A DNA stretch of 64,000 bases from Marsupella aquatica. Its lineage: Eukaryota > Plantae > Marchantiophyta. The position numbers were made by a program, and so were the translations under genes. Where the stretch lies: assembly GCA_973895155.1 (NCBI GenBank), contig OZ316891.1, forward strand, positions 28,463,145 through 28,527,144, in the 5' to 3' direction. The notes under the pieces were generated by a model. That model was not told the origin of the DNA, did no database searches, and worked only from the letters and a program-made list of their open reading frames with translations. This document shows, in pieces, positions 5,300 through 62,949 of this stretch (positions within the stretch are counted from its first letter, which is position 1; each line of letters begins with the position of its first letter).

Positions 5300-6172
5300 T
5301 CACTCTGATTCAGAATCGCTAATAACCCCTTCCTCACTTGTTGTCACATAGTTTTCACTGTGAGGATCCTGACCCTTCCGTGGCCAGGCCTCAAAAAGAT
5401 CATAGTCCATTGGGTTTTGACGCTTCCCAGCTGCTACTGATTCCACAAGCCAAGCATATGAAACCACAAACACATTATGGGACATGACATAAAAGCGAAT
5501 GTCACCTTTCCCAAACTTGCGGCAGGCTTTGGGATATGACTTAGTAATGACATGAGTGGTGTCCTCTGTTATATTCTCCTCCACTATCCCACCTAGGTCA
5601 AGCACTGTGGACTTGTACACTTTGCACTTAACCTCTCCAATTCCCGCCTCCACAAAAACCATGCTCAGCCCTTTCAAAATGGGGGTTGGTTGCTTCATCT
5701 CCTCAGCCAACATACTCTTCAGCCTTCTTGAGCTTTGTCCTGTGTTGAGTACAGGTCCATATTGGACATCAGCAAGCCATGCCTTTGCTTCCCAGACTTC
5801 TTGTTTAGCCCAAGCTGATGCAGTAGCTTCTTCATCCTCCCACAATTCATATTGCTCAGTATCCTGTACAATCTGATGTGCTATGGAATCTGTGATCCAA
5901 GAGGCCTCAACTACTTTTAGGCCTCGCTCAGTAATTGCAGAATTCATGTAGGACCATGACCACTTCTTTATCACTGATAGCCATGTCCCTGCAACAACAT
6001 GTGTAGTCTCTGGAGTGATGTCCTGAAGTATAGTGCCATGGAGCTCAGAGAATCGTTTCTGTACAGTTGGCCAATGCACTTTGGTCAACCCATGCTGGCC
6101 ATGGACCAAAATGGGTCTGACCCCTGTAAACACTGCTGGGTGGTCAAACTTCCTACGTTTCCCAGGCTCCAT
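5300..6172 (-). CDS. Tandem-BRCT protein (CACTA cargo)
   Basis: Two repeats with G(G/T)...TTHV(V/I)...VV...W(I/L)xxS BRCT signatures. Open ORF of about 290 aa, conserved in copy 2. Confidence 0.85.
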   Translation of the reverse strand: MEPGKRRKFDHPAVFTGVRPILVHGQHGLTKVHWPTVQKRFSELHGTILQDITPETTHVVAGTWLSVIKKWSWSYMNSAITERGLKVVEASWITDSIAHQIVQDTEQYELWEDEEATASAWAKQEVWEAKAWLADVQYGPVLNTGQSSRRLKSMLAEEMKQPTPILKGLSMVFVEAGIGEVKCKVYKSTVLDLGGIVEENITEDTTHVITKSYPKACRKFGKGDIRFYVMSHNVFVVSYAWLVESVAAGKRQNPMDYDLFEAWPRKGQDPHSENYVTTSEEGVISDSESE

Positions 6173-6756
6173 GTACACACACCCTATGTGATGAGAGTGA
6201 ATATTGGAAGAATGGGTTCACCTGCCAATAGAAGGACACCAAAATTCCTGCTTTTTAAGTTGATCCGGTCCACTGTTGCTCAAGTCCAATTTTGATAGGT
6301 ACAGGGGATATGTGAACAATAAGTACTAGACCTGCACCGATGTAGGACATTGTTTGAGTATATACTAGGAAATCCATATCAAAGGTGAAATGAAGTGCAA
6401 CCAACTTGTCATGGCCGCACATACATATTTTTTTGTAAAGGAGGATACATTCAATGACAAACTTATAGGGCAATTTGATTAATTGCATGCCTGATGCTTA
6501 CAACTTTGAAGTCCTGTTTTAATTTAGCAGTCTGATGAGAGTGTTTGTGAAAATGACCACTCAGTCTAAATACTTCCAAGAAGGCTTGTAAGGATAAGTT
6601 TTTATAGGCATGTACCCAGCCAATAACGCCAGGGCACAGGATAAGTGCTCCCTGTATAAACTCACCTACCCAAGTCCTGTTCAAAATTGGAATCTCTGCA
6701 ATCTCCAAAAATAGTACATCCACATTAGGTGCCCTATGCATGTACAATGTTCAGCT

Positions 6757-12805: not shown

Positions 12806-14757
12806 TTCCCTCGCAAAAACTAGCAGTCGACACTAAACTGCACACCAGCAGTCACTCCTTGGATCCCTTCCCGTTGATCGGCATTTTTACCCTAACGAAA
12901 GTTCACACATGTTAGACGTCACTTAACACTTAGCACAAAACGGTCAGTAATCCCTAGTAAGTGTGCATGAGATTTTGTTTGTGGCCCTTTTAGTTTGGTG
13001 ATTTGGGTATTGGTTATAAAAACACCCAATGTCACCGGGAGTAAGACAACACCCACCCTTATACAAGAATGCCTAAATTTGATTAAACCTTACAATACCC
13101 ATTTGATCACAATTAATTAAATAATGAGACCACATATTTAGCGAGCAGGCCTAGGTAGCATAGGGTACTTTAGGGCCGGGCCCTCCATTGTGTGGCTGTT
13201 TGGCCTATAGGGTATAGGCCAGGAATACAGATCGACAGGTCGGAGTTTAGCTCCGGCCCAATTGTTCACTTCAAGGTTTAATTAGTTAATTAGGTCGGGC
13301 CCGGGTTACACCGTACGTCCATACCGTGCACCATAATATGTGTTGGCTATATAGTAACCGAACTCATCCTTATCCTTATTACAACCCTAAACATACTAAT
13401 AGGGATAAAAGAAGGTAAGTATGACCCCAAATTATGCCAAATCCAAATGGTAACATGACACATATTAGGTGCACAATATGTAATGGTCAGTTTAGTGACT
13501 AAAATGGCTTGCCTTCCTTCCCGCCCTTCCTAATTGGTCATAGGAATAAGACAGCGACCAAAAAGTGAACAGTTGTATATGTTTTGGAGTCTTATGTTGA
13601 CTTAAGAATGACTCAGAAGTCGTATATAGTCACATAAATATGACTGAAGTGTGGGCTGCGCACAATGGTGATCAAGCCTGTCATAAGTGGTCGGGTCACA
13701 AAACACCCCGGTTTCTACTAGTGTTTGGTGTGCTGTTTTGGGTGGATAAATTGAAACCTAAAAACATGGAAATAATTAATTAAAAAATTCAATTATATTT
13801 GGTGTGCATTGGTTTCCAAGCCTCGAGGGTTTCATTTCCACAAAAATGGAACATCATGTGAGACAAAGTATAGGGTCATTTTATTGGTTCAAAGGAAAGA
13901 TTTAAGAATTTTCTATGAATAACAATAGGGTTTTTTAAATTTAATTTTGAGACTTATAAGAACATTAGAGTACTTATAACCAAATTTTTGGAATATTCCA
14001 ACTTTATAGAGGTTTATAGTTTTTAAAAATTCTTACATTTTAGGGTATCCGGGGCCTAAAACATCGCAGGTGATGGGGAGCCATGCATCCATATAGTGAG
14101 ACCCCCGAGTTCCAACCTAGAAGAAAAGTGGGAACTAATCATGAGCCTTCATCAAAATATGTGTCTAGGCACTGTCTGATCTGTCCATACACCCCAATCT
14201 AAAATATGTCTTCCCAAGCTGCCCACTTACCTGTCCAAGATTAATAAATTGTAATTAAAAATAACTACAATTATTCACATTTAAATTATTTCTCTAAAAA
14301 TTTAAGACTTAAAAGTAAAAATTACATTTCCCTGTCACTCGATTATATTTGCGGACTCTATGATGTGGTGGTGCTATCTTGTGTCTCCAATATGATCTAT
14401 GTGCAATGCATGGGTTATTGAACATGACCACGACAATTGTATAGTTGGGATCACACATACCATGCCTTGATCAACAACTACATTATAAAATTTAAATATT
14501 TTAATCTTGTCTAAGTTACATTTGTCTTGTCTTGACATTTTTTTCTAATCTTTACATATAGGTTATCTCAGTCTCCTTTCACATGTCTACTTTGCCTTGA
14601 CATCTTTTTTTGACATTGATATATATTTATCTAACGTCCCGTCTCATGTACCACAACATTTTTCTCTTGATTTTTCTCACCCTCAACGTATATCTTTTCT
14701 CATCTTATCTTTTTTCTCATCTTGCCATTTTTTCTCACTCACATCTTTATCTCACCA

Positions 14758-20466: not shown

Positions 20467-22251
20467 TCATGGCACAGGCACACTGTTGGCATCTGCATCT
20501 CTGAATTCGCCTCCTTCAGCAAATGCATCTACCCTTGTCACAGGAATGAAGTCCCCGCTATCATGAACTACAGGCACTTGGTCTGAACGCCGACGATCAA
20601 AGGCACTATGAGAGTGTAAATGAAACTCAAGGTTTGATCCTTCCATCCGACGTTGCCTGGCCTGTATATGACACACTACACGCCAACCTGGGGAGTCTTC
20701 CACATCCAGGAAGAAAGCTTGCTCCACCTGACTAGGAAACACAAATGGCTCAGACCATTCGGGCAATTTCCCTCTGAAATTGGCCAGCAAGAAACCGTCG
20801 TTGTCTCTCTTCATGGTAGCCCTATTACCAAGCCAATCCTGCCGCACCCATGAACCTTTCATAAGAATCACAGGACTGGACACCGCCCCATAGTCCAGAG
20901 CCCATATGTCAACTAATTCTCCCACATATCCCATCTCCATCCAGGCCCTGTCGTGATTGTGGCTCTGTTGCTCAAATACAGTGATGAGCCCACAGTCATT
21001 CGTCACCCTGTAGGCACTGTCACCATCCTTCACTCGAAAGTGATTCCCATATGCTCTCATCCGTTTGTAAGTCTTCACTTTCAGGCTAGGGGCATTAGAC
21101 AGTAGGTAAACATCTACATCCATGTCTGGGTGGGTCTCATGATGCTCTCTAATTGCCACTCTGATCCACTCCATGAAACCTGGAAAAGTTGTTCTTGCAG
21201 TGGGATGGGCCGCCTTCAATGACTCATACTCCCTGAACGAACAACCACACAGCATTAGCTTGGGTAAACATGAACAGGCTGAAGGAGAAAACCACACGAA
21301 CACAACATTTAAGCTCATGAACTGGATTATAGCACATGTATGCACTCACTATATCCAGGGTTCCATCACCACAGTGTTGTGCAATACAAAGTCATGTGCC
21401 AAGTCTCTCATAGATATGGTCAGGTTCTTTGTGGTTGCAGCCCCTTCCAGTACTTCACCTATCACCCCTTCCTCCTCATCAGAATTCCACACCCTGGTCT
21501 TCACATGCTCATATTGTGCTATGTATTCGGTCAGAAATCCCAGAGTCTCATCCTTGATGTAACCTTTAGCCATGCTTGCTTCAGGTTTGTAATATGTTCT
21601 CACGTGACCTTTGAGTAGCTTCATGTACCGTTCCAAAGGGTACAACCAACGAGCACTCACAGGCCCAAATTGGTGTAGCTCTTCCACAACATGGACAAGT
21701 AGGTGGGTCATGACATCAAAAAATGCGGGAGGAAAATAAATCTCCAGGTCACACAGCACCTGAGCGACATCTTCTGTCAGTTGTGGGAAGTGTGTTTCAT
21801 CCCAAACCTTCACACAAATACGATGAAACACATCACTGAGTCGCATGATCACAGTACGAATAGGCTTCTACAACAGGCCCCTTAGGCATAAAGGCAACAC
21901 CTGTTGCATCAACATATGGTAGTCATGGCTTTTCATACTACCAAGCTTTCTAGTCATGATATGCTTCTTGAAAGCACTGCCATAGTTTGAAGGAACCTTC
22001 AAAGAACTCAACCTCTGCACAAATAGTTCCCACTCTGTGTCTGTCAGAACATAGGGCGCTTGGTACTTCAAGAGCACATCAGCTCTGTGGGCATGTGGCC
22101 TCAACCAAAGATGGGGTTTCATTCCCCTCTGTTCAAGATCCAATCTCACTGAACCAGTGTCTTTCTCTCCACACAAGAATCTGAGTAGACTCTCACAAAT
22201 ATTCTTTTCAATGTGCATAACATCAATGTTATGTTTGCTTGGCTCAAACTC
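20467..22251 (-). pseudogene. TnpD 3' exons of CACTA copy 2 (DUF4218, DUF4216)
   Basis: HNIDVMHIEKNICES, MKSHDYH, FPPAFFDVMTHLLVH, PFVFPSQVEQAFF. In-frame TAG at 21868. Confidence 0.9.
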
Positions 22252-23010
22252 CTGGGGTAATTGTAACGTGCGAGCAAACAGTAGAATTTTTGCTCACACG
22301 GGCAAGATGTCACCTTGTATTGGGGCCCAAAAAAGGTCTGGAATATTCCTCGCTAGCATGGAGACCCTGTTCGATCAATAAATATAGACGGCTACCCATG
22401 GACGATTCTAGTCCCGTGAACGCAATAGATCAAAATGACATATCTTCAGGCCAGCAAAATCGCTAGTCTAATGATGCCAACACATTGAGCCACTCATCCG
22501 AGGTACGGTCTCCACGTACAGGCTTCCACATGTGAAAATTCCCACCCGAGGAAGAGTAATAACAAAAAAGTACTGCGTGATTCCTGCGTGAAAAGAATCA
22601 ACGTGTCATTACTGCCGAGGAAAGGAGGATTAAGGCCGTTTGGACACTAATTAAGTCACTTGCAAGTGAACGGGACACTTACCGTTCGAACTAGACTCGA
22701 ATCCAAGGTGTCGAACCGTCCACTTAAACAAATCCGCTAGCCCCAAAACCACCAGTCTTCCAAATCATTCTCCTGATCACTTCCACCACGTCCGACTTGA
22801 TCTCTTTCATTCGGAACTGCTATCAGTGTTCCAAGTTCTCAACACTCTCCAGATCTAGTTCAGGTAAGCGCGGGTCTATGCTCTGAGCTGTTTTAAGGGA
22901 AGAACTCTCCGACAAGGCATGATATTCATCATATTTCATCGTGAATACTGTTTCCATTTGTTGAATCCTGTTCTATTTAATCATTGTTTGGGTTTTGTAA
23001 GTGCAGAGAA

Positions 23011-23439
23011 ATGTCTGGTGTTCCAAGAAATCCTCCTCAGGGGAAATGGCGACTTGAGATCCGTCGTTACAACCCGGCAACAGATGGCCCGCTTGAAGAT
23101 GACTCTCCTCCGAAGCAGAAACCCGATGCAGAGACTATGAAGGTCTCCGCCGGCAGTAGTGTCCCAACCGAACTCGGTCAATCTGTTGGATCGTCATCAT
23201 CATTGAGGAGAACACCTACTCCTCCAAAGTTAATTCCAGCAGCAAAGTCTCCACCGAAGCCAAAGGTGGATACCACACAGCGCGAGGTTGTATCGAAGAG
23301 GAAGAGGCTCGCAGAAGAGGAGCAGTATTGGATTGAGAGGGAGATCTATGACTACTGGACCGAGGAACGCCTCGCCTCTTTGGATTATGATTCTGAGTCA
23401 GACACTAACTCCGATGCATGGAAGGCGTCCAGCCCCTGA
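23011..23439 (+). CDS. Small MULE-borne protein with NLS-like KRKR and a conserved acidic, aromatic C-terminus
   Basis: ATG ORF of 142 aa. KRKRLAEEEQYWIEREIYDYWTEERLASLDYDSESDTNSDAWKASSP is conserved in the second copy (61599-62035). Confidence 0.7.
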   Translation: MSGVPRNPPQGKWRLEIRRYNPATDGPLEDDSPPKQKPDAETMKVSAGSSVPTELGQSVGSSSSLRRTPTPPKLIPAAKSPPKPKVDTTQREVVSKRKRLAEEEQYWIEREIYDYWTEERLASLDYDSESDTNSDAWKASSP

Positions 23440-24062
23440 GGGTAGAGTCAGGTTGTGGATTTACTGAAATTTTTGTAGTTACAAGCGAACCACATGTCCT
23501 AATGTACTTTCAATATGTATGAGAAGTAAAGTTTGGGCGGTCCTTTCATTTCTATGTGTTTCTCTGGAATGCCATTTTGTACATAGTACTTTTATTTTGA
23601 AGTCACTGTTGGACCCTTCCCAGACTAGCGATATCGCTAGTATAGAACTGTGTTCATCTTCGATAATCAATTCGATCGAGTATTACCACAACAACTTCAG
23701 GGAAAACTTCCCTCCCTAAACCCTAAACATCCTGTCACATCCTGTCCTAAATTCCGTTGATCAGACTAGCGATCTCGCTAGCCAAAAACTGGCGTCATTT
23801 TAATGATCAAACCGTGAACTCTATAGAAACTTGTCAATAGGTTAACACGTATGAAAGTAGGATGTTTCTGTCAGGATGCAGCAGACTTCCTAAGACTAGA
23901 GAGATCGCTAACCTTAAACAGCAAACGCAAACACCATAAAAGTTACCATTATGGACCTCGCTAACATTATGATTCACTCGGTGAAAACAGATTGATATTT
24001 GTGAAACCACAAACTCGAGTAATCCATCCCACCACCCTATAATTAGCATCTCCAATAAACGA

Positions 24063-27000
24063 CTAGTCCCCTATCTGTAACGGAATTAAACTCCTCACTT
24101 CCCCAACAGTCAGAATTGGTTGTTTGACAAGGTCGTCCTTCTCTAGGTTGAGTGAAAACTTGTTTAAATACACCCACAGCAGATGTTTACAAGACATGTA
24201 TGGTTTCCCTCGTGTATGCCTCTTATAAAAGTCTTCACAAGAACACGAAGGGAAACAACAGATTTGCACCCAATATGTGTGCGGAACTTGTGAATCAGTC
24301 TCGTGAGTGGCGATCAAGTATCTCCAACCCCATCCATTTCCGGTAGTTACCTTCTCATTTCCGACAACTCTCATGTATTCTTGTGTAGCGGAAACGATGC
24401 GCTTGAGCAACTCTGGAGTATTGCTGAAACGCTGTCTTGCACCCTTACCATTTTGGGTTTTCAACCGACGGTCCACATTAGTTAGATCAATTCGTTCGGC
24501 GAATGAGTTAACATCAATTCGTAGGTTGACCCAATTGGGGGACGGGAACTCTCCAACTTGATTTGCATCCACATAGGAGAGTCCACTGATCTAGAATCCT
24601 AATCCCAGCAGAAACTCTATCTCGGGATGGAAGAGGCAAGTCCCACGCTGAACCTTGAGCGACTCGGGTGGGGGGGGGGTAGTTGAGCTAGAGTTCTGCA
24701 TCCTCGGCTCTTGTGACACTTATTATTAGGACAGAAGTACAACAACTGGCGATGTGGAGACGATAATCGCAACCCGTGAATGGCGACTCCAACAATTCCC
24801 CCTTGCGCGGACTTACATCCAGTCTCCTTGATGAGATTTCTACATTCATCTCTTCCAAAAACGCTTCGGTCAACCGACCCGTTGCAAACAGGTCCAGCAC
24901 CTCTACCGCTTCGCCTGAGATGCCAGGTCCCATAAGGAACATCAACCTCTCGGATGGAAGGGATCCTTTGGGGGGCATCCCGATGGTCATCCCCGACATC
25001 ACACGGAGGTTGAGTCCCCATCTTCACGGTATCATTGACATTACGACTTGCATCATCACCATCATCATCTGAAATATGGATAACTCCAGTAGAACAACCT
25101 CCGATAGGTGTTGCCGAAGTTGTATTATTTGCTACTTCTGGGTCCGCAGAAGTCTCCGAAACATTGACGAAGCGAAATTCAGGATAGAGATTACGCCTTT
25201 TTAGTCCTGAAGGAGAAGCTGTTGTGCGTGACACCTTGTCATGTCTGTGGGAGTCATTCTCGTGGATTACAGCTGAAGCTTTCCCTTTCCTCTTTGTGGA
25301 TGTTGTTCGGAGATCGCCATGTAATGGAACTGTTCTATAGAATTCATACTTAGCTGAAGACTCAAGCAAAAGATTTGCTGCCTTTTCGTAAGCATCCATG
25401 GATCCCATAGCATCGGCGTTCCTATATGCTAATTCAAAAATGGTCGGCCCCTGGCCTCTGTGAACACCTTCACTGTAGGCAGTAAAAGCAACAATTTGCC
25501 CCGCAGCACGATTCTGGTCCACCTCACATGCTTCAATCAATCCCACTAGTTTCTTCATTTGGCAGGATCTCATGGATGCATGGACTGATTCCGCTCCAGT
25601 ACAATTTGGCATCAAGGCTGACTCCATTGCGGTTTGCGTCTGCGAAAAAGTAGTCCACAGTCAGACCTGATATGCTAGCGAGGTCGCTAGCAAAAACAAT
25701 GACGTCAAAGAGAAATGAAATTGGACACTTACAACGCGGATGAAGTTCCCCCACTGCCTCCACCTCACGACCCACCAAGATAACCATCCTTGGAGAGACT
25801 TCAATTTCCCAGCATAGCAGTTTCCTTCCTTCCACCAACGATGGATTTCGTCAGCAACACGGTAGGCCTGAACATATGTTGGTGCTGTTCTCAGCCTTTC
25901 CCACAGTTTATAGTGCTCTCGATGGCGATCTTCCCGAATACCCTCCAATGTGTGACAAGAAGAGATTGAGCAAAGTGAAAGCCATCACTGTGCTCCTTCT
26001 GTGGGTGACGGACACCTCCAAAAAAAACATTTCGAATGGCGATCCATCCAGCCTCGGCATTATCGGCAATAAATCCTCCAATGAGTGGGTCATGCACATC
26101 ATGATCAGAGGCAACTTCAATCATATATCTCCATGCGGTTTCAAGAGATAAGGAGTCCTCCGCACGGAGCTCACAAGTGAAGATGGTACAAAGGGACCTG
26201 TAATTATGGTCGTACACATGGGCGCTGAAAGTCAGCCACCCAGTGCTTATTCTCCGCATTACATCAGAACTGACCCATGCTCCTTCCAGCTCACCTCCAC
26301 TCTTCATCTGCCTGAGAATATCGACACCAGAACCTGGGCCATTTGTACTCATTTTGAAGACATGAGCCCTATCGGTCTTGCTCCCCTGCCCAGGGAAAAG
26401 GTACCTCTGAACATAAGGAAAATTATTTCGTGCTTGCATCTCACGAAGAGAATCCAACTCACCTTTTTTTGGGTTATCCATTTTCATGCTCCGGAATATG
26501 GCCTGGAATTTCTCAACAGTGGACACAACCTTCATCGATTCCCAAATCTCTCTCTCTTCTTCTTTTGATAGTTCTGAAGAAGACTCTGGATGCAAAAGAG
26601 AAACCAGGTTTCCTATAGACTTGTTAAGAACACGCCCTGGCGTACACACGGGATTCGCTTTATGAACACCAGAAACTATCTCCTCCGCCTGCTGTTTTGC
26701 CAATCGAGATTTCCCCTTCCAAACAACGTGGTCATGGAAACCCATGTGAATAGCCAATCGAGACATATGTTTCGCAACATTTGACTCAAGAGACGGCTTA
26801 GGATAGACATACAAAAGCTTAGCCGGACATTCACGGATGCAGAGAGGCCTCTCCTCACAGAATCCGCACACCAACCCTCCTTCCTCCACAAGCTCACCAA
26901 GATGAAACGGCTCAGTAAATTGTCCCTTTCCTTGGAAAGAAGAGTCATTTTTTGAACCGGTGTGCTTCAACTTTCTACAAACCAGATTTTGGCATTCAAG

Positions 27001-27777
27001 TACACCGGCACATCTGACTTTTGACACAGACTAGTGATTGCGAGGTTTGAGATTAGCTGAAGTTGTGAGAAGTCTCGTCCATGGATAGCCGTCATTATCC
27101 CTATCCATGTCTTGAAGACCATATCCTCGACGAAATTGACCTTCCACCGGAGGAAGCTCAAAAACGCAGTTTCCATTGTAGGAAGTGGGCAAAGTCTGCA
27201 CTTGAATCTCCTTCCAATCGTTTCCCCTGCGGAAATTTGCCAACTCGCTTGACCCAGTAATATTGAGAAAGGCATCATATGCACTAACTCGATAAAGAAC
27301 TGGCTGAGATTGAAACTTGTTTTGACTCACTGCTTCAAAAACGGATTTCTTAGAAGACTTTGTCGACACAGAAGAGACATCCCTACCCACACTCTCAGGG
27401 GAGATGTCAATAATTTCTGGTACTGCAGGTGACGGGCGAGTCGGGGATTCTGGATCGGAAACATTGATATGTGCAATGTCATCCTTACATGAGACTAGCT
27501 CTACATCTGAACCACACTTCAGGTCCCAAGCTCTTTCTGGCAATATTCCTGAACCATTATCCGACACCTCGTGACTTCTGGATCCATCCCGAGAGTAAAG
27601 AACGAACAACTTCCAGATGAAATCATCTTTCAAAAGCCCAAACCTTGATGAGAGAAAAGACTCCTTTACAGAGATAATAGTATTCTCCGGAACATCCAGA
27701 ACAACAACATCACCCGTCGTCTTTCTCTCGATCACAACCTTCGATCCCAATGAAGACATGCTGGAAGTTTTGGACAT
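24063..27777 (-). pseudogene. MULE-type transposase with N-terminal GCM-like zinc domain and C-terminal SWIM finger
   Basis: CAGVLECQNLVC...CGFC...C...HMGFHDH (GCM/WRKY-like); DDE core SSDVMRR...HVYD...GFIADNAEA...FHFAQSL; SWIM CSCEDF...CKHLLWV. In-frame TAG at 27031, frameshifts at ~25950 and ~24670, intron at ~25667-25731. Confidence 0.8.
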
Positions 27778-28452
27778 TACAGTCTACAGCAATCCCCAAT
27801 GTGAGATACTTCACTCTCTTCTTTCTCCAAATACATATGAGGAAACGTGCTTGTGTAGGTGTTGGACTCAACGTATTTATTTAATAAATTCCTCTTATTC
27901 CCGTTATCTGACCGTTATTTTGTCTTATATGACACTATTTGCGGAATGATAAAGCTAGCGATCTCGCTAGCTCAATGAACCAAGTAAAATTGTTCAAATC
28001 CTTACAAAACACCCTTCAGGAGTTCATGTATTTAGTGGTCATTTTTTGGCTAGTGATGTCTCTAGCAAAAATATTTCATCATAAGAGACAATTGTGACCG
28101 TTTATATCCGTTGGAATTGGTCAACGGGTACCTATATGTCAACAGTACGGTACAGTACCGGACACCTGTCTCTTTGTCATTAGATACTTTTCTTTCAGTC
28201 GTGAGTTTGGTGGTTCGTATTTCCAGAAGTACATGTATACCTGACGGTGTCTGAAAAATGATTGCGAGAAGAGTCGTATAGAATATTTGTATCTCTTTTC
28301 ACGACCGGGCGCATCATTCAGGTGAAAGCAACAGACGAGGGTACGATTCTGTCTTTGATTGGAAGATCGATTCTCGGGTTTTTTTATGTTCACAAAGCGT
28401 GTCGCCCTCGACCTTGACCTGTTCATACCCTTATCACTTCACGGACCCCCTG

Positions 28453-31400
28453 ATGGAGCCATTGTCTTCACCCGAGAGCTTGTCATCAATAGGATCGTTC
28501 AAGTCAGTCGAGTCAAGCCGAAGGGAGACCAGGTCTACAGTGAACAAGAAGGCGCTCTAGGCGGGATTGAAAACACCGAGGAGGCCCAAGATGGTGAACC
28601 AAGTAGATGTTGTGAATCCAACGTTTCAACTTGGAGCTTCAGAACCCTATTCTGTTGTCATCAATCGCCATCTTTTCCCTTTTGGAAATGACGAATTTGG
28701 ATTCCCGCTCGCTCCTCCGAGGATTCCCCTTTGCAGAATGCGAAACATGCAGATCGTTCGGTCCTTGCAAACTAACTCGACTGCGATCGAGACACTCAAG
28801 AATGAATTCCGGATGCAGGGATACATCGAAGATGCGCCTCGATTTTACGTCCAAATGACCGGCGAAGATGGCCTTGTCCAGATGTGCGAGGATGTGATTC
28901 GGGAGTCGTGGGATGACATGTGGATTCTTCAGAATGAAGAATTCGAGAGGGAATGTGATTCTCACAAAGCTTTCAAAATTTTGAAAGACAAAATGTTCTG
29001 TGTTTTCGATGGAAATCATCGTCTGTACTCATGGATGCAGCTTGCGGACGAGAATCCCCATGATGTCAAATATCATCCTCGAGTTGTTTGCCGAATTTTC
29101 AAGGATGACAAGAACTCATTCGTGCAGATTGAGTCGGCAATGCATGCGCTGAATAGGTTTGTTTCTTTTCCTTCAAGCTGTGAATTGTATCTAAAATTCT
29201 TTCATTTCCTCTTGTTAGCGATCTCGCTGACCTGTTTCTTTTGTTCAGGTTGACTCAATGTCACGTTGAGAATTCTTGGGTCCTTGAAGCAGAGAGAGTC
29301 CACAAGGTTCTCAGTAATGACCTTTCTGTATACAAAGATATCATCGATGCAGACAACTACAAACTTTTCTAGCAGAAGATGGCAAATATCAAGAAATCGG
29401 CTTGGTATTCGAAGAACATGGCACTCGATGCCTGCACGTACATTCTGTCTGCTGCTAATATTGCAGCGCAGACGGAAGATTTGAAGAAGAAGTTTCAGTT
29501 GAAAGAAGCGCAAGGAGAACCTCTTTCAAAAGCTGCGCAAGACATGGCAGTCAAAGACATGATGAAGGAGCAACTGGCAGATTGGAATGTGAAGGTGCCA
29601 AAGATTGGACCTCTCCTAAATCCTGAGTTTGGTGACTTTTTCCAGAAGTGTGTTGAGATGCACAACTACTGTGAACATGAGAGGAAGGAGGCCCAACGAA
29701 CAGACGATAAAGGAAGGGGTAATGTGTCATGTGGTCTCGATCGTGCGAGGCTATTTACGGGTGTCTCGTCGTTGACTCCCCAGCTCAGATGTGTACTCCT
29801 CGAGGCACAATGCAGACCTGAGCTTCGCAAGAAGTACTTCCACCCTGGTCAATTCTTGGACAGCGAAACAAAACTTTGGCTTCACCGATGGGCTGTATGG
29901 GAGCAGGTTGAGTCAATTTGTTCTTCGCTCATGTCTGAGATTATTTCAGAGTTGATCCCAACTATTCCAGATGCAAGGATCCTTACTTCATCTGAGAAGA
30001 CAAAGCCATCGCTGATCCTTGACATAGAGGAGGACTTTGAAGATTTCCAAACGAGAGTGAAATCTCGTTTTTTCAAACAGATTTGGCCACCAAAGTCGGG
30101 TGAGAAGATTGACATCTCACTTTTTCGGAGGAGGGCGAAGAGATATACGTATCGTTTTTTTGTGGATAGAGAAGTTGCTGACAAAACATATTGGTGGTCC
30201 TATCCTGCTTGCTTCTCGCCTTGGATAGCAGGAGTAAAAGAGGATCCGACCTCTGTTAAATATGGAGAGTACTCGATGTACCCATGTGAGGGAGTGGAGG
30301 CTCCAAGGAAGATGAGTGAGTGGGAAGTCCTTCACTGTCCATGGTATTTAGAATCAGACAAATGGGCAGTGACATTTGACACAGCAGAGAAGGCAGCATT
30401 TCATATGATAAATTGAGGCTTGATACCAGAGTCGTACATTACAGAGTCCAAATTAGCTCCTGCAGAAGCCGAGGCTGGCGGATGTGATGCAATGGAGAAA
30501 GTTGTTCTTGGTGTAGCTGCCATTGTCGACCGGAGTAGATCGAGGAGACCTCGGAAGGTGTCGGTGAAGGACACGTCCAAAGATGGATCAGTCTTGTCTG
30601 GGAAGCAAAGCAGGTCTTTTTCTCCTCTTTTTTTCATACCTCATTCGGAGTAATTTTGTCTCAGTCACCTGTCTGACATTAACATGTTTTTCAGAGAAGA
30701 GAAAGGCTACAGCCTCTGGCAGTTTGAAGAGTGGGGCGGATGATGGAGAAGAACCCAAGTCTCCTGATGTTGAGGTCACAACAAAATCTGATGTGGACCT
30801 GGGTTCAATCAAGCGTTTAAAGAGGAAGCGCAATGTCCAAATTCTCTCCGACTCGGATGAGGAGGAAGCATGCGTCGCGCAAGGAGTAGCACGAATGTGT
30901 GGTCTTAAGAAGGACGGTGAGAGGCATTTCTTGGCAAAGAGCAATCTCACGGAAACTGCAAACTCAATTAGCCAGAGGAAAATAAGACCTCCCTGGATGG
31001 GCGATGCGGATCAGTGGTTGTCTGGAATGAGCAAATCAAGCAAACACCCAAACGCCGTGATGATCAACGGAAAAAATTATGCTGGAATTGGTGCTCACTT
31101 GGGTTTCATATTCCTTCCCACGGGTCATCGAACAAGCATCACAGACCGGGAGGTCCCGAAGTGGAATGTTTGGAGTGAGAAATTACCATATTATTTCTTT
31201 GGAGTCATGCTTCCGATGCTTGCCGATGATGGTTATGTCGCAGTTCTTCACAGCTCTGACTATAACCATATGAGGCAAATGTTTTCTGCAGTCGAACAGA
31301 AGAACAAATTTAAACATGTCCAGCAGTATTCGGTTTTGCTTTCATCTCCTTTGTATCAGGCAGATATGGACATCGAGGTAAGATATCCTCCATATTTTTT

Positions 31401-31977
31401 GTGAAATTTTTGCTAGCGAGCTCGCTAACCAAAAGTGCCCATTTCTTACATATTCTCGTTTTCAATTCAGGTGGTTACTCTCATTATGGATGTCTTCTGC
31501 AAGGTGGAATTCTCGGCAAAAGTCCCGAAACATACAGGATATGTTCCAATGACTTCCTTGGAGGATGCCCGCCATAAATCGATGTTGAGTGTTTGCTACC
31601 CAAAAACTGATCCCAGTCCCAGGGCGGCTTTCGCAGGTTCCAATAGATTGTCAGTTGGGTTCATGCAAGCCGTAATGGAGATCCTTACTTTGCCAAAGGA
31701 CATTGTCATTGACTGGACTGTTGGAGATGGAAGTGCTTTTGCCGCTGGGGAATACGCTGGGAGATTTGTTGTGGGTGTTGAAGATCAAGACATTCTTCAT
31801 CTGCGTGCACAAAGAACTTTGGCAAATGTGTTGGATAGACATGCCCAGAAGTTGAAAGGGGCCGCAGACCCGAAGAACGATGATCCCAATGATGAAGGGT
31901 CGGATGATGAGTTCACCATCCCAGGAGATGATCAGGGAGGACCTTCAGACGAGAAGGATGAATTCGACCTGGAGTAA
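28453..31977 (+). pseudogene. ParB/Sulfiredoxin-like N-terminal domain fused to a beta-class N4C/N6A DNA methyltransferase-like domain; 3 introns, 3 premature stops
   Basis: Exons ~28453-29156, 29249-30612, 30695-31377, 31471-31977 with GT-AG introns. ParB-like VRSL...IETLKNEFRMQGY...VFDGNHRLYSW. MTase-like RLSVGFMQAVMEILTLPKDIVIDWTVGDGSAFAAGEYAGRFVVGVED. Stops at 28558, 29370, 30414. Confidence 0.7.
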
Positions 31978-32148
31978 AGCACTTGGCCTTTGATGTAGAA
32001 CTCCCTATTTGGTGTTTTTCTTTTGTTTGTAGAATTTTCGGATGTTTAGTATTGATCCGACTCTGGTGATTTCTTCAGTGATAGGTGTTCGGATTGGTTT
32101 TCGGAGGAGAGATTCCGTCTTCGAAAAGAAATCGAGGATCATTTTCTT

Positions 32149-32418
32149 GTGACCCCTGAGAAGGGATTTGCGCTTCCATGCTATGCTGAAAAGACTGCAA
32201 AGGAGGTTGATGAAGCGCCCGTCATTTTGACTTGGGAGGGGAAAGGTCTGCGGTCAGTGAGGGGTGTTCGGAAAGCCTTTTACTACCCTCAGTTCATAGA
32301 TGATGAGGCTGGGACTGTAGCACAGTATGTTGACGGTTCGGCTGAGGAGACTGATAGGGAGTCCAGTAGCGATCCTAGTAATTCCTCAGATGATTTGGAA
32401 TCAGAGGATTCTCAATGA
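32149..32418 (+). CDS. Possible additional acidic ORF or alternative exon inside the MULE
   Basis: Open frame downstream of a possible acceptor TTCTTCAG (~32078). No recognisable motif. Confidence 0.25.
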   Translation: MTPEKGFALPCYAEKTAKEVDEAPVILTWEGKGLRSVRGVRKAFYYPQFIDDEAGTVAQYVDGSAEETDRESSSDPSNSSDDLESEDSQ

Positions 32419-32878
32419 CTCATGGTCAATTTCAGATGCAATCTCATTCCAGAAGATATTTGTCATACCAAAGTTTTATTAAAGATGGATTGTGAAAGGT
32501 TTTTTGACCTGGTTTTGTTGACAGTGATGATGCCTTTTCATTAAGTGCAGTGTTGTGAAGATCTCAAGTTTTTCGGTTGTGGATATTTCAGTATCTGCAT
32601 TTTCGTTTTCCTTAACTGTTTCACAATATATATCGACAATCTTACTTGGGAATGCACCTTAACTACCCTCAAATTACGAGCAAACTTGCCTTGCTAGCCT
32701 GATGTCCTCGCTAGCAAAACTCCTGTTTGCTCGCACAATAGAATACCTCAAACTCCTGCATCATTGCAATGCAAAAGCGTCAGGAAATGCCTCAAGTTTA
32801 GTCTCTCTCTTCGAAATGAATGCACATGCTCTGAACCAAAACATGTATCCCAATTAGCATCAACTCCAAGAGGCTTAC

Positions 32879-35143: not shown

Positions 35144-36016
35144 TCACTCTGATTCAGAATCGCTAATGACCCATTCCTCACTTGTTGTCTCATAGTCCTC
35201 TCTGTAAGGATCCTGACCCTTCCGTGGCCAGGCCTCAAAAAGATCATAGTCCATTGGGTTTTGACGCTTCCCAGCTGCTACTGATTCCACAAGCCAAGCA
35301 TATGAAACCACAAACACATTATGGGACATGACATAAAAGCGAATGTCTCCCTTCCCAAACTTGCGGCAGGCTTTGGGATATGACTTAGTAATGACATGAG
35401 TGGTGTCCTCTGTTATATTCTCCTCCACTGTCCCACCTAGGTCAAGCACCGTGGACTTGTACACTTTGCACTTAACCTCTCCAATTCCCGCCTCCACAAA
35501 TACCATGCTCAGCCCTTTCAGAATGGGGGTTGGTTGCTTCGTCTCCTCAGCCAACATACTCTTCAGCCTTCTAGAGCTCTGTCCTTTGTTGAGTACAGGT
35601 CCATATTGGACATCAGCAAGCCGTGCCTTTGCTTCCCAGACTTCTTGTTCAGCCCAAGCTGATGCAGTAGCTTCTTCATCCTCCCACAGCTCATATTGCT
35701 CAGTATCCTGTACAATCTGATGTGCTATGGAATCTGTGATCCAAGAGGCCTCAACTACTTTTAGGCCTTGCTTAGTAATTGCAGAATTCATGTAGGACCA
35801 TGACCACTTCTTTATCACTGATAGCCATGTCCCTGCAACAACATGTGTAGTCTCTGGAGTGATGTCCTGAACTACAGTGCCATGGAGCTCAGAGAATCGT
35901 TTCTGTATAGTTGGCCAATGCACTTTGGTCAACCCATGCTGGCCATGGACCAAAATGGCTCTGACCCCTGTAAACACTGTTGGGTGGTCACACTTTCTAC
36001 GTTTCCCAGGCTCCAT
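35144..36016 (-). CDS. Tandem-BRCT protein copy 2 (upstream region displaced by the LINE)
   Basis: Intact ORF, about 20 amino-acid differences from 5300-6172 by eye. Confidence 0.85.
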   Translation of the reverse strand: MEPGKRRKCDHPTVFTGVRAILVHGQHGLTKVHWPTIQKRFSELHGTVVQDITPETTHVVAGTWLSVIKKWSWSYMNSAITKQGLKVVEASWITDSIAHQIVQDTEQYELWEDEEATASAWAEQEVWEAKARLADVQYGPVLNKGQSSRRLKSMLAEETKQPTPILKGLSMVFVEAGIGEVKCKVYKSTVLDLGGTVEENITEDTTHVITKSYPKACRKFGKGDIRFYVMSHNVFVVSYAWLVESVAAGKRQNPMDYDLFEAWPRKGQDPYREDYETTSEEWVISDSESE

Positions 36017-36265
36017 GTACACACACCCTCCTTGGAATGGTTTTTTTTATAAATTTTAATACCGTGAAAGACCCCACGGATAGGGGGAACAACAGCCCTT
36101 AATACAGGAACAGCAACAGCACACTAGCGAGCCACAAAGAGAGCCCAAAAGCACAAAAGAGAGCATCAAAGCCCCAGGGAGAGCCCCCCCTCAAAGAAGG
36201 GAAATAACACCGATCAAGAGAGCACCCATGCCCTTCCCACAGCAGCCCCCCAAAAAGCAGACCCC

Positions 36266-43551: not shown

Positions 43552-44205
43552 TCACAGCCAAGATATGTGATCTCTCACAGGAGTGCGCGAGGTAGGATCA
43601 ATGGCATGGCGATGACAATAAAATATCCATCGATCAACACCATATGCAGAGTGATCATAGATTTCTCTATCACAAGCATAACCCTCTGCTTGACGATCTT
43701 TCAGGCAATGATAGTGCCACATGGTGGGACACCTAGCACAGTGGACTATGTCAGTCCAGTACTCATGATCATGCTCACCACATGCCTTGCACCTATGAAG
43801 TGGGCAAGCTGTGGCATGAGCAGGCAAACACTCAAAACAGAAAAATCTCACACAAAAACGGTCTGGACATTTCCTAACATTTGCTGCAGCATCAACAGAG
43901 CCCTCATAGGACCCCAACTTCCCACACTGTGCACACTTAGCCTGCTTCTCCAAACAATCAGTGCACATCCAGTCTCCCTGGTGTGTTGACGGGAGGCCCA
44001 CCCCTGGACAGTTGTTTTCTGTAGCAAGGTCAGACTCCGGGTTGAGGTGGAAATGCCTCATGCAAGGGCCCTCACAAATGGCACAACAATGAGCTACCTT
44101 CTGGAAAATCTGACTTGCAGAGAAGTTAGTAGCATCTGCCCCAAGTACACCTGTGTTTCTCACCTCTGTCACACGCTTTTTGGCTTGAATTTTAGGTCGT
44201 GCCAT
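43552..44205 (-). CDS. EDM2-type PHD module copy 2 (open frame, 27-nt in-frame deletion in the first PHD)
   Basis: Near-identical to 6757-7437 but lacks DDGGSLVIC and has Tyr where copy 1 has a stop. Confidence 0.82.
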   Translation of the reverse strand: MARPKIQAKKRVTEVRNTGVLGADATNFSASQIFQKVAHCCAICEGPCMRHFHLNPESDLATENNCPGVGLPSTHQGDWMCTDCLEKQAKCAQCGKLGSYEGSVDAAANVRKCPDRFCVRFFCFECLPAHATACPLHRCKACGEHDHEYWTDIVHCARCPTMWHYHCLKDRQAEGYACDREIYDHSAYGVDRWIFYCHRHAIDPTSRTPVRDHISWL

Positions 44206-44932
44206 GCCTGCGCATGAGATAGACTCTACAGTTTAGCAGACTGCACAAAAAGTAATATATATTTAGCATTTAAGGTACAAAGGCATTTAGATAGACTCTA
44301 CAATTTAGCAGACTGCACAGAAAGTAAAATATATTTAGCATTTAAGGTACAAAGGCATTTGCTACTGCAATGAATTGGAATGGCCACACAAGGATGCAGA
44401 GCAGACATACTTTTGGTATGTTGAGCCCACACACAAACCTGATCCCCTAATACAATTGCTCCACCAACACCTCAATTTTAATTGTGGCTATGATTCACCA
44501 AAGGAGATCTACAACAACATTTCATGCATTTGAATCACATACAATAGTCGTGACATGTAAAACAGGCATTCTTCAAAGAGGATTGGTATGAAGCCGTGTC
44601 ATAAGGGTTGAAATTTATACATCCTAAATAGGCTATGATAGTGGCTGAGACAAATAAGTGATGCATAAATCATATTTTACAGGTTATCACATGGCCCATT
44701 AATTCATTGAACGTTGCAATGTTCACCAGGTTAAAGCAGTCATGAAAGCAGTCTTTCAATAGAGACTTTTATGCAAGTTTGCTAGCCTCTTAAATTAGGA
44801 TATTTTGCTTAGTGCAGGCATAATAGGATAAGTTATGTACTGTTGACCCTAAACCCTGGACCCAAAATTGCTCATACATCAAAATTTTAAGTAAATATCC
44901 TCTGTGTTGAAGTGAGAGTGTTAAGCTATAGG

Positions 44933-50125: not shown

Positions 50126-51519
50126 TCCACGAGCCCTGATCTGATTGCAAACTCTCTAGGCAAAACAGAAGCACAACTTTGCTAAACCCGGGGCTAAACC
50201 CCTCGACTCCCTCGCCCTAAACGCTTTGTGGCAGACACACAAACGCAACATTCAACGTTGAGTCTCGATAGTTTGTGGGAAAAATAAAACTTGACTCACA
50301 GGCCCGCGGGTGCAAAGGGTGCAAAGAGCCGTTTGGCGCGAACCTAACTGACATGTCAGCCGGCCCCTAGAGTGATCTCAGCCGTCCGGATGAAATGAGA
50401 CTGCCTTGAGTGATCTCAACCATCAATGAGGCTGAATTTGATGTTAACCCAAGGCCCCCAATCCCTCTACTTCAAGTGTCTAAATTACACTCCGGCCAAG
50501 CATTGTCTAACCCCACAAAATAAGTGCTAAGTCATGACAACTCTGCCCTCTCAATGTATAGCAAAAAACCAATAATTTCCAATATGCCACCAACAATATT
50601 AGGTGGTATAATTAGGTACTAGTAAGTATTGTCGCATGCACTAGACTTTCTTTGTGTGAAAAATGACATCATCCATATGGACTTTTTTGTGTCATTAATG
50701 AAATGATCTAATACGAGTCTGACTAATATAATGCCAATTCAAACATTTGTCCTAAACCCACATTTTATTTTATAGAGTACCCAATGAGCTATCACTTTTT
50801 GCCTATTACCAATTTTAATACCCTAGTACTCCTTTAAAGTTTGTAAATCACACAAAGCTTGAGAAGAAATGTAGGTGGTGCCAGGCCACCAAACAATACT
50901 TTTTCTATGACACTCAGTTGAGAGTTACATAAACCATCCGGAAACCCCTCGCTTCTACGTGCCCTAAACCCTGTACTTCATTTAAATTGCTATCATATTC
51001 TCTGGATATATTATTATCCCTTGGCACCATTCACTTAACTTCTCTGGTAATTTAATTATCCACTCCGACCTTCAATCACTATGTTTTTTGTCAATGTTAA
51101 GTGGTATATATGTAGTCTTGCAGGTATAATCCTTGGGAACCACCACATCCAAAGTGGTTTTGGCCAATCCTAAAAAACACCCCACTACTTACTTGATTGC
51201 AAGTTGTTAAAAAGAAACTATAATTATTGTATCACAAAAATGGGGAACCAAACCACCACATTCAAAGTGCTTTTGCCAGCCCTCAAAAACCCACTACCTC
51301 TTTGCCAGTGGTTTCAGCAGTCTATCACTAAAATGTTGGTGACATTGTTACTGCACTGTGGTGAGAATCCGGTATGACATGATCTGTAGTGGTATTTACA
51401 AGATCTCTGTCCCTTACTTGATTGTCAGTTATTTGTAAATTACAACATTTATGTCATTTATCACTCAAGACTAGGTGATGGTACTAGCACTAGAATACAT
51501 GTGAGAGTTTGGAACCACA

Positions 51520-53755: not shown

Positions 53756-54814
53756 ACAATTTGTAAATAAAAAAATTATTTGTCGCTATAATTCTGGCGG
53801 CATGCATATTGTGACTGAAAATGTGTGTTGATAATGACACCATGGGGAGAGGTTTTGGACATCACAAAATAATCTGTTTAATTTTTAGTCATTTATCAAA
53901 ACTGTTTTGACACTCTAATGTTGGTGGCATTTGCAGTGGCAAAATGTATTTAAAGAATGACATTACTCATAGTGATTTCTAAGAATGGAAAATGATCTAC
54001 TTTATTTCAAGTCATTTGCAAGGTCCTGCATTGACACTCTACTCTTAGTGGTATTTGGAGTCACTAAAATGTGCGAAGAGAATGACATTCTTTAGAGTGA
54101 TTTTGGACTAAGGAGGATGTGGCACTTGGTTTGAAGTTGCATCAAATAATATTTATTGGACTCTAATATTAGTGATATTTGTAGTTAGACAATTTGAGAT
54201 AATAATGACTTTATGTAAAGAAATTTTGTACATTGAGAATTAATTCACTCAATCTTAAGTTGTTTGTAAGAATTTCCTTGTCACTAAAATATTTTAAATA
54301 ATTTTGCCAAAATTCTTTTGTGACTCCACTATTGGTGATATGTACAGTAACAAAAGGTGTGCTCACAAATGACATTATTTCAAGTAATTAAGATCACTTG
54401 GAAAAGCTTCACTTGATTGGGAGTTGATTGAAAAAGCACCTTTACCATTCAAATATTGGTGGTACTTGTATTTGTAGTGGTTTCGGTCAGTAGTAAAATC
54501 TTAGTTGAAAATAGAGTTGTAAACATCGACGGTGGAGTGAACGGTGGATTGTAGTGATTTGTAAATTTGTGTAATATACAACTCTAATTCAAGTGATCTA
54601 AGTTTTAGTGGCAAAAAAAAGAGTTGTAATCAGTGATTAAGGTAACATAGTTCTAAGTAGAGTAATAAAATGCAGATTATTACAACCCATTAAAAGAATA
54701 GTGGTTGGCACCACGTACGAGTTATTTAGGCAAAGTAGTTGCAGGGCCTGTAGTAGTAAAACACAGGTTTTCTTCTAGTGTTGGCCTTAACTCGAGTTTC
54801 AGCTTAGACAGGCA

Positions 54815-61199: not shown

Positions 61200-62949
61200 C
61201 AAGGATCATATGTATATTCAGTGTGGGTCCAAAATGTTGCCTACTTTTACTAGCGAAGTCGCTAACAACGAACGACACATATCAAGATGTAATTAAACCA
61301 AACTTCTGTGTTAGCTAAACATACACGCCGTTATTTCATGACAGACACAACATAAATCACTTTGGTACCGTAGGAAACTTTTGCTAGCGATCTCGCTAGC
61401 AAGATATGGACAAATGAAATTGAAAAAACTTTTGAAGATTATTGAGAATTTGTCCACTTTGATCATAAAAATATCTGTATCTGACAAAATGTCCGTGTGC
61501 TCGTGAACATTTCATGGTTACTTAAGTCACGAACTTAACAGATGTTAACTGTCAAACTACGTTGTTGCACAATGCGGAGTAAATCTCTAGGGTACTATTC
61601 ATGGAGATGCTGCCTTGTATGCGTCTGAATCTGTGTCCGAAGCGGTATCATAATCGGACGAAGCGAGGATGTCGGATGTCCAGTAGTTGTGTATGTCGAT
61701 GTCCCTCCAGTAAGAGTCCTCCTCCTCTCTCTTCCGCTTCTCTGAGACTCCCTTAGAAACGGATGCGTCAGTGCGAGAAGACATTGATGCTTGGGAAACA
61801 ACTCCTGAAGTTGTTTCCTACGGAGGTGCCGGTGGCTGAGTTGATGCACAGACAACAGATGGGACCCGACTGGATGCGGCTCTAGTCTTGGTTGGAGGGG
61901 GGACAACGCTCTTCTTTGCCGGGGGAGAGCTTGGTGGGGAGTCCAATGGGCCATTAGGTTTGGCATTGTAGGGGCAGACCTCCAGAACCTATTTGGCTTT
62001 TGGAGCGAAAGAGTCATCATTCCTTCAGTTGCCATTTTTGTCTATAACAAACATTGCTACGTGTGAGATTACTTTCAAAATTGTCGGAAGTCAAAGTGTG
62101 TTTACAAAACAGAAACAATCACCTTCTAAACATCCAAGCTCATCGAGTGCAATCATGCAAAACTACAAGTAGACAAATAGAACTGGGATAACCCGACGTT
62201 CTGATTAACAAGAAAGTTACTTGGTAGGAAGACGTCGTCCGGTATCAAACTTACATCTCCTTGAATGTGCGACAGACAACGTGCTATGCTGCGTCAAACC
62301 CGAGAACACTAGAACCCCTCCTCGCCCGGGGAGATGAGAACACAAGCTTGATTGAAGTTACTCAGCGAGGGGAAGACAATTGTGAAAGAGTTTGGCCCTG
62401 AGGAGACGATGAAAGTGAAAGAATGATCACATTGTTAGGAATGGCGATGAGTCGAAAGGTCCAAATGACATATAGTGCATTTCAGGAGCCTCAGATCCTC
62501 TGAAATGGTTTTGGGTTCTAGTCCTTTCACGCTTGAATGATGATGAAAAGGAAATTGGATTCTGTAGTGAGATCAGTTGCCATAGTGCTGTCGCTGAAAC
62601 CGTGCTTTCTCATGTGTGCATTTTCGTGTAAGGCAAGACCGCACGAAATATTTTGTGCAAGAATTATGGACATAATTATGGCTAGCAACTTTGCTGGCCT
62701 GATGTACATTGGAATTGTATGACCATTCGTGTTCGGGGAATACGTAATATGTACCATTCCACCGTCAGGATAGGTTTGGAAATCCAATAGGAGTTAAATA
62801 GATAGGTGTAGTAGAAGGTTCCTTTTAGGCTAGAGAGTGTCACTTTATGCTAGCAAGGTTGTTTTTGTGCCAAATTTTGGGTATTCCAAGGAGGAAATGA
62901 TCCCGTGCAAGGAAAATTTTTACTGTTTCCTCGCACGCTACAATGACCC
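61200..62949 (-). mobile_element. Truncated, diverged second member of the palindrome-bearing MULE family in inverted orientation
   Basis: End at 62949 reads GGGTCATTGTAGCGTGCGAGGAAACAGTA on the minus strand, matching the TIR at 22255. Carries the small-ORF homolog and palindromes at 61249 and 61383. The left boundary is approximate. Confidence 0.85.
61599..62035 (-). pseudogene. Homolog of the small MULE ORF at 23011-23439
   Basis: LEVCPYNAKPNGPLD versus LEIRRYNPATDGPLE; KRKREEEDSYWRDIDIHNYWTSDILASSDYDTASDTDSDAYKAASP. Frameshift and stops. Confidence 0.75.

Follow-up and report, generated by a model that had tools for sequence, protein, structure and literature searches.

A ParB-like gene and dispersed 18-bp palindromes in the non-coding DNA of a MULE-like transposon of the liverwort Marsupella aquatica

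The stretch of Marsupella aquatica DNA analysed here (64,000 nucleotides, hereafter the window; GenBank assembly GCA_973895155.1, contig OZ316891.1, positions 28,463,145 to 28,527,144 of the forward strand) contains a MULE-like DNA transposon of 10,492 bp (22255..32746), which belongs to a multi-copy family and is broken in both main genes in this copy. It carries a small open reading frame (ORF) on the plus strand, a two-exon transposase gene on the minus strand, and a four-exon ParB-like gene and a 120-codon frame on the plus strand (Table 1). Dispersed through its non-coding DNA are nine copies of an 18-bp palindrome made of two 8-bp arms around a free 2-bp centre (consensus GCTAGCGA-NN-TCGCTAGC), for which the ParB-like protein is our candidate reader.

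The element is flanked by an 11-12 bp target-site duplication (TSD), CTCAAACTCCTG (left 22243..22254, right 32747..32758), and its insertion point lies inside a CACTA transposase gene. The empty site is known from contigs of three of four public runs (X1, X3 and X4), in which 22242 is joined to 32747. All 30 element bins are covered in all four runs with many variant contigs, which is why we regard the family as multi-copy. We call the element MULE-like on the basis of the duplication length and of transposase motifs that we read by eye, presumably a GCM-like zinc finger, a DDE core and a SWIM-like end, the transposase having no Pfam, NCBIfam or PDB sequence match. The terminal inverted repeats (TIRs) are short and imperfect (~35 bp). 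Members of the MULE superfamily have TSDs of 8-11 bp together with terminal inverted repeats (PMC6446971), and both are found here, with the duplication at or just above the upper bound in length. A deleted derivative that joins 23287 to 27518, with CCCTAAACCCTAAA in between, occurs in three runs, and this telomere-like motif recurs near 23716-23729, between two palindromes. The acidic tail of the small ORF (YW..D..DY.S.SDT.SDA.KA.SP) is conserved between diverged elements, making this ORF a third accessory gene.

Table 1. Coordinates of the features of the MULE-like element and of its diverged relative in the window
Feature	Position	Strand	Remark
Left TIR	22255..22302	+	two TIR boxes TTTGCTYRCAC, motif distinct from palindrome
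Half site TCGCTAGC	22350..22357	.	
Palindrome, degenerate, GCCAGCAA-AA-TCGCTAGT	22450..22467	.	counterpart 62681
Small Pro/Ser-rich ORF, acidic tail	23011..23439	+	also in 61-63 kb fragment (61599-61990); no Pfam match
Palindrome, perfect	23624..23641	.	counterpart 61383
Palindrome	23765..23782	.	counterpart 61249
Palindrome, degenerate	23895..23912	.	weak further site 23948
Transposase gene, two exons	24063..27777	-	premature stop and frameshifts
Palindrome	25674	.	within transposase intron 25640..25732 (93 bp, minus strand)
Divergent promoter region	675 bp, between transposase and ParB-like gene		palindromes at 27954, 28049
Palindrome	27954..27971	.	divergent promoter region
Palindrome, degenerate	28049..28066	.	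divergent promoter region
ParB-like / methyltransferase-like gene	28453..31977	+	exons 28453-29156, 29249-30609, 30695-31377, 31471-31977
Palindrome	29214..29231	.	ParB-like gene intron 1 (29157-29248)
Palindrome	31412..31429	.	ParB-like gene intron 3 (31378-31470)
Open frame, 120 codons, unexplained	32056..32418	+	
Two half sites, longer spacer	32693..32715	.	directly inside right end
Right TIR	32713..32746	-	80% over 35 bp, one TIR box
Diverged left-end fragment of related element	61249..62949	-	TIR, small ORF, palindromes 62681, 61383, 61249

Eight of the 18-mers had been listed in an earlier note on this DNA, and all eight (8/8) lie where it placed them; we add a ninth full site at 22450 and an additional degenerate site at 23948. 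When the pattern RCTAGCGANNTCGCTARY is allowed up to 3 mismatches it gives 26 strand matches, or 13 loci, in the 64 kb, against 0.95 expected and a maximum of 6 in 100 shuffles, with ten loci falling within 22450-31429 and three at 61249, 61383 and 62681. Since this pattern was derived from the sites themselves, we also counted, without bias, every exact spaced palindrome whose arms are 6 bp long. In this count the element has five copies of TAGCGA-N2-TCGCTA and the 61-63 kb fragment two, whereas no spaced palindrome occurs more than twice in any of five other regions, and base shuffles of the element reach only 1 (100/100). Moreover, a weight matrix built from the nine sites scores them at 14-30 bits in leave-one-out and scores three untrained sites at 15-31 bits, against a best of 9.9 bits in the other 51.7 kb. 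The sites are spaced at ~0.1-2.3 kb, and all nine (9/9) lie in non-coding DNA, as had been claimed for the first eight, although under our gene models such DNA makes up only 2,821 of the 10,492 bp (27%; p ~7e-6). Three of the four element introns hold a site, so that the claimed placement in introns stands for these and not for intron 2 of the ParB-like gene (30610-30694). The half sites reported near both ends are likewise present, at 22350 and as two GCTAGC motifs at 32693 and 32710 that lie 11 bp apart instead of 6, and the CACTA and LINE sequence of the window contains no full copy. In viral contigs the exact palindrome also turns up at 14 loci; each has a single full site, none resembles the element's proteins, and we treated them as chance.

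The sites stand out as islands of conservation in the 61-63 kb fragment. Its TIR is identical to that of the element at 40 of 48 positions and its small ORF at 47% over 59 amino acids (aa), and its three sites flank that ORF in the same order as in the element. Matching sites agree at 43 of 54 positions, while the other non-coding DNA agrees at 558 of 997 (56%), the level of five shuffled controls (55-57%); as the aligner anchors on such motifs, the order and position of the sites weigh more than the percentage. Another relative (L001, one locus out of 44 candidate stretches in a single metagenome scan) is a 2-kb contig with a transposase 65% identical to that of the element and an intron of ~320 bp at the same position. 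This intron contains three variant palindromes, GCTAGCGC-N2-GCGCTAGC, in which the innermost arm pair has changed from A-T to C-G on both sides. The earlier note had suggested checking whether related families pair different palindromes with divergent ParB-like proteins; in L001 a symmetrically changed site lies beside a transposase, the only gene of the contig. DNA of relatives was found neither in viral contigs nor in prokaryote genome contigs. Six intron-3 variants are common within the family, and the site contains none of them (0/6; chance ~0.28 by hand calculation, not significant alone); one diverged contig realigns at the intron-3 site after 145 unalignable bases. The arm CpGs are intact in 18 of 24 cases, and the flanks of different sites are mutually unrelated, for which reason we reject the idea that the introns are copies of one inserted element. 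Taken together, the conserved arms, the free centre, the retention between diverged elements and the symmetric change in L001 agree with the earlier description of the sites as resembling the operator of a dimeric protein.

The ParB-like gene spans 1,084 codons, with three premature stops. Relatives of its first exon form 225 clusters at 50% identity, and those named by organism among 30 proteins looked up come from Riccia sorocarpa and Adiantum. Among 74 relatives that reach the intron 1 point (29157), 44 end within one residue of it, which suggests from sequence that this intron is old and common across the family. Intron 2, the sole element intron without a palindrome, has a GC donor in the window copy. 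In one Adiantum gene model (P0117) the ParB-like protein is joined to a NIF/FCP1 phosphatase domain, and this may be a fused annotation.

Structure prediction points to a ParB fold. The exon-1 model (predicted local distance difference test 93.7) finds ParB-CDP as its best Foldseek match (6sdk, E 0.043, probability 0.99), followed by Noc, sulfiredoxin and KorB, and in a wide structure search its best match is KorB (Z 7.5, root-mean-square deviation (rmsd) 2.5, 92 residues aligned), with the top 12 of 14 rows being what we take to be ParB/sulfiredoxin-fold proteins. These matches are weak singly but consistent, comprising ParB, Noc, KorB, PadC and sulfiredoxin, with phage ParB in the viral library, and ParB-fold proteins are the top matches in three structure libraries. 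In a second look at Foldseek's own matches, residues 27-390 in the model of a Riccia relative (P0155) aligned with Myxococcus ParB over 193 of its 194 residues (Z 9.3, rmsd 4.9). This alignment spans the nucleotide-binding and DNA-binding regions of ParB, as do those with Bacillus ParB and Noc, and the best unrelated row reaches Z 4.6. We therefore predict a ParB nucleotide-binding fold in the window protein and, at a moderate score and in P0155 only, a helix-turn-helix DNA-binding region of the ParB type after the N-domain. Residues 390-590 of P0155 gave no structural match above Z 4.6, and the middle region of the ParB-like protein had no usable Atlas match. By sequence, the ParB-like exon matched no Pfam family, and PDB sequence searches returned noise only. 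Atlas look-alike clusters for 28591-29157 have ParB_N in 11% and DUF3723 in 31% of their members, fungal DUF3723 proteins among them, and a literature search pairing DUF3723 with ParB found no paper. A two-copy complex prediction for residues 8-400 of the relative scored 0.00, with the alignment unused and the fold uncertain, and is evidence neither way.

In 92 aligned sequences four residues are conserved (R57 in 77/86, G141 in 85/90, R144 in 77/89 and N188 in 64/72), and by motif order, rather than by structural alignment, they match R54, G92, R95 and N127 of Myxococcus ParB. A scan of 25 window ORFs, the element's main frames among them, found no ATPase family and hence no ParA; an integrated transposon would have no need to segregate. 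The ParB-like system would thus work like ParB at most and is not a member of ParABS. The ParB identity put forward in the earlier note is partly supported, by the predicted nucleotide-binding fold in the window protein and by the predicted DNA-binding region in its relative, and it is qualified by the apparent Asn at the catalytic position and by the search that found no ParA.

The C-terminal part of the protein resembles a methyltransferase. PF01555 (N4C/N6A methyltransferase) is matched by a full-length relative (P0153) at E 5e-5 and by window exon 4 at E 0.1, in both cases below the curated cut-off, and window exons 3 and 4 align with this relative. The catalytic motif precedes the S-adenosylmethionine-binding motif, an order like that of beta-class N4C/N6A enzymes. 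The (D/N/S)PP(Y/F/W) catalytic motif itself is absent, the sequence reading FIFLPTG with no variant at 20% or more in four runs, and relatives have D-x-P-x-G at this position (DLPTG, DMPSG and DMPTG in Riccia; DVPFG and DFPIG in Adiantum). Of the ParB-methyltransferase fusion described previously, the C-terminal methyltransferase-like domain is there and the catalytic motif is missing throughout the family. Judged by these motifs the protein is not a canonical methyltransferase, and because the motif is missing in the family, gripping or shielding bases, or recruiting partners, is a more likely role for the domain than methylation.

As a proxy for methylation history we compared CpG depletion at codon boundaries. 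The element's two genes have 92 CpGs against 138 expected (ratio 0.63-0.71), compared with 42/183 in the CACTA genes (p 4e-9 versus the element; 0.21-0.29 in three CACTA sets) and 43/108 in the LINE (ratio 0.40; p 0.005 versus the element), and the ratio in L001 is 0.85. The milder loss fits a less-methylated lineage, as far as a proxy that is not specific can tell.

In bacteria ParB loads at palindromic parS sites and spreads. By analogy, a ParB-like dimer of the element would bind the two arms of the palindrome as a loading site, close around the DNA on binding nucleotide, slide out from the nine sites as a closed clamp and coat the element, and this coat would keep host silencing off the element, much as VirB does against H-NS, with a site layout like that of VANC. 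VirB is a ParB-type sliding clamp that acts as an anti-silencer (PMC10770331). These steps differ in how far we would commit to them. That the ParB-like protein reads the palindrome is quite probable; loading and sliding in the manner of ParB, KorB or VirB we favour by a small measure; and anti-silencing as the outcome is a tentative suggestion that falls somewhat short of an even chance. The broadest form of the proposal is that seed-free land plants host a large transposon family running a bacterial-type nucleotide-gated sliding clamp on eukaryotic chromatin, in which every family has a ParB variant of its own matched to a palindrome of its own in introns and spacers, drags a catalytically altered methyltransferase domain along the element and keeps host 5-methylcytosine off it. 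In this full form we consider it doubtful.

Several observations weigh against the sliding clamp. None of the fold searches, whether with window exon 1, with P0155 or in the viral library, gave a match at E 0.001; the Z scores of 7.5-9.3 lie in the middling range of the tool, and for the upper value, obtained from P0155, Foldseek itself had given nothing significant. The DNA-binding evidence also comes from P0155, to which the middle region of the window protein is 29% identical. The GxxR motif reads GNHR instead of GERR, with Asn (89/90) at the position of the ParB catalytic Glu, E93, and His at that of R94, and Q52 of Myxococcus ParB is without a conserved counterpart. Without E93, Myxococcus ParB shows slower release and wider spreading, while the R94A change prevents the ring from closing (10.1101/2021.05.05.442810), so these residue changes appear to cut both ways. 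ParB folds can bind ATP or GTP instead (PMC12704722), and in a phage ParB-dioxygenase pair mutation of nucleotide-pocket residues did not markedly impair function (PMC13229309). At 57-59 kb an unrelated ORF reaches an equal CpG ratio (0.71), and CpG shows no clear rise near the sites (0.70, 0.68 and 0.54 by distance). Intron 2 of the ParB-like gene has no palindrome. Finally, as L001 contains the transposase only, the change in its site could have followed the transposase just as readily as a ParB protein.

The strongest alternative keeps the ParB-like protein as reader and lets it stay put, either as a fixed regulator of the two divergent genes or by bridging and condensing the element for end pairing, with no sliding or no anti-silencing. 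The two sites in the divergent promoter region and the half sites beside both ends would suit such a role, as would the altered GNHR motif and the tolerance of phage ParB partners to nucleotide-pocket mutations (PMC13229309), and with nine sites over 10 kb, covering the element could require little sliding. We nevertheless think fixed binding unlikely: the arginines and the asparagine on which Myxococcus ParB depends to bind nucleotide and close its ring seem conserved across the 92 sequences, and intron sites distant from promoters and ends have been retained across families.

A second alternative makes the palindromes internal transposase sites, read by the GCM-like or SWIM-like domain as transposition enhancers or for self-activation, with the ParB-like gene as unrelated cargo. 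Precedent exists in the Arabidopsis AtMu1 transposase, which alone binds, hypomethylates and activates cognate copies, but AtMu1 binding peaks at the TIRs (10.64898/2026.08.24.746577), whereas the palindromes are found as far as 5 kb from an end. In favour of this view, a half site with its T-rich flank, TTTGCTAGC, differs at a single base from the TIR box TTTGCTCGC, the second-box position at the right end is taken by a half site, and the changed site of L001 sits beside a diverged transposase. The TIR box, TTTSCTYRCAC in general form, is found five times in the 64 kb, each time no more than 40 bp from an end, and its variable base is G in the element (3/3) and C in the fragment (2/2), yet the palindrome is unchanged between them. 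Two motifs that change independently suggest two readers, on one comparison and with a half site that resembles the TIR box, and this separate behaviour of the terminal motif argues against the transposase as palindrome reader. We hold this explanation to be distinctly less likely than fixed binding.

It is more improbable still that the sites act as intronic RNA hairpins or that the element uses them to exploit a host transcription factor that binds there. A hairpin is predicted at the site in each of the three site-bearing introns (z -2.7 to -3.1, against -0.3 for the site-less intron), as it would be for any palindrome, but 12 sites in unrelated contexts have kept their sequence and not pairing alone, breaks on one side only are seen in several of them (5-7 of 8 pairs), and six of the nine lie outside introns. 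An Rfam search was without match, so that an Rfam RNA was rejected, and a change of site between element families would not be expected of a host factor. The view that the sites are neutral by-products, spread by local copying inside the element and unselected, draws on the within-family variants, which by themselves are no proof of constraint (0/6 in the intron-3 site, chance ~0.28), and is largely refuted by sites kept at matching positions while their flanks fell to shuffled-level identity, by the unrelated site flanks, by the absence of sites from the 73% of the element that is coding and by the intact arm CpGs.

Around the element the window holds further nested DNA. CACTA-type inverted ends (CACTAGTAGAAA) at 13693-13724 and 54814-54845 enclose ~41 kb of nested elements, and the CACTA copies include a gene with a BRCT domain and one with a PHD finger (5303-6217, 35147-36046, 43555-44232), possibly chromatin-reading accessory genes. 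Tandem units of ~705 bp with shorter sub-repeats occupy 51500-54500.

How one transposon protein can read a short motif and yet alter chromatin over many kilobases is a question raised for VANC (PMC5735166), and a ParB clamp would be a concrete answer to it. The locus supplies a candidate protein together with its exact presumed site, and a naturally occurring variant of that site offers a specificity control. If the proposal is true, a ParB-type clamp would be at work in a eukaryotic nucleus, and a single protein with a single site would make a portable tool for anti-silencing over kilobases. Because the family is large and reaches liverworts and ferns, it could be tested in vitro or in a model liverwort.

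Several known systems resemble the one proposed here. Like bacterial ParB/parS, Noc, KorB and VirB, the element combines a predicted nucleotide- and DNA-binding architecture with several palindromic sites (here nine 8-2-8 sites) on its own DNA; unlike bacterial ParB, it has no ParA that we could find, GNHR in place of GERR, large helical insertions and a eukaryotic gene with introns. Phage ParB-N6/N4-methylase fusions are described in a ParB-fold survey (PMC12704722) and are comparable to the C-terminal methyltransferase-like domain here; the portion of that survey consulted names sulfiredoxin as a eukaryotic example, and the terms 'transpos' and 'plant' do not occur in it. ParB-HTH (helix-turn-helix) methylase fusions have been noted in chlorophytes and chytrids (PMC4738411). 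Eukaryotic N4-cytosine methyltransferases are known as N4CMT of rotifers (PMC8885841) and DN4MT1 of Marchantia (10.1101/2021.02.12.428880), and these share with the element's protein a bacterial-type amino-methyltransferase fold in a eukaryote (PF01555, weak here). They differ in being genes of the host whose catalytic motif is intact (SPPY in N4CMT), and the sections of these reports consulted make no mention of ParB, whereas FIFLPTG here is transposon-borne.

In VANDAL elements, VANC acts through a short motif in introns, intergenic and terminal non-coding DNA that differs between families, and its effect spreads over kilobases (PMC5735166). As described there, the VANC system shares with ours a MULE-type element, an accessory protein and a family-specific motif in non-coding DNA, but VANC motifs are non-palindromic 8-9-mers in tandem repeats with function shown, while here the motif is a dispersed 18-bp palindrome and the putative reader a ParB-fold candidate. 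The red-algal Plavaka elements have a ParB-like gene, PAG3, beside tandem inverted repeats, for which self-recognition was proposed (10.1101/2025.02.11.637652). Both are transposon ParB-like genes with inverted repeats; going by that account, PAG3 fuses ParB to a 2-oxoglutarate oxygenase with the methylase separate, and its repeats form tandem arrays beside the gene, where ours are single copies across introns and spacers. Another close parallel is the accessory gene of Sola1-1_Ec32 in Ectocarpus, which encodes a 1,104-aa protein with ParB-like and N4C/N6A methyltransferase domains opposite the transposase, and for which self-binding and modification were proposed (PMC12477816). Compared by description of architecture and layout, both elements are DNA transposons with a protein of ~1,100 aa joining a ParB-like to a methyltransferase domain on the strand opposite the transposase. 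The brown-algal element belongs to the Sola superfamily, and the matching passages of its text and supplement name no binding site, whereas the land-plant element is MULE-like, its palindrome being defined and dispersed and its catalytic motif degenerate. In the published literature searched, with subscription papers mostly outside the search, we found no example from a land plant, no sites dispersed in introns and no change of site specific to a family. The idea of a self-binding ParB accessory protein is already in print, as a proposal, for red and brown algal transposons, and what we describe in Marsupella is a real feature and a variant of it.

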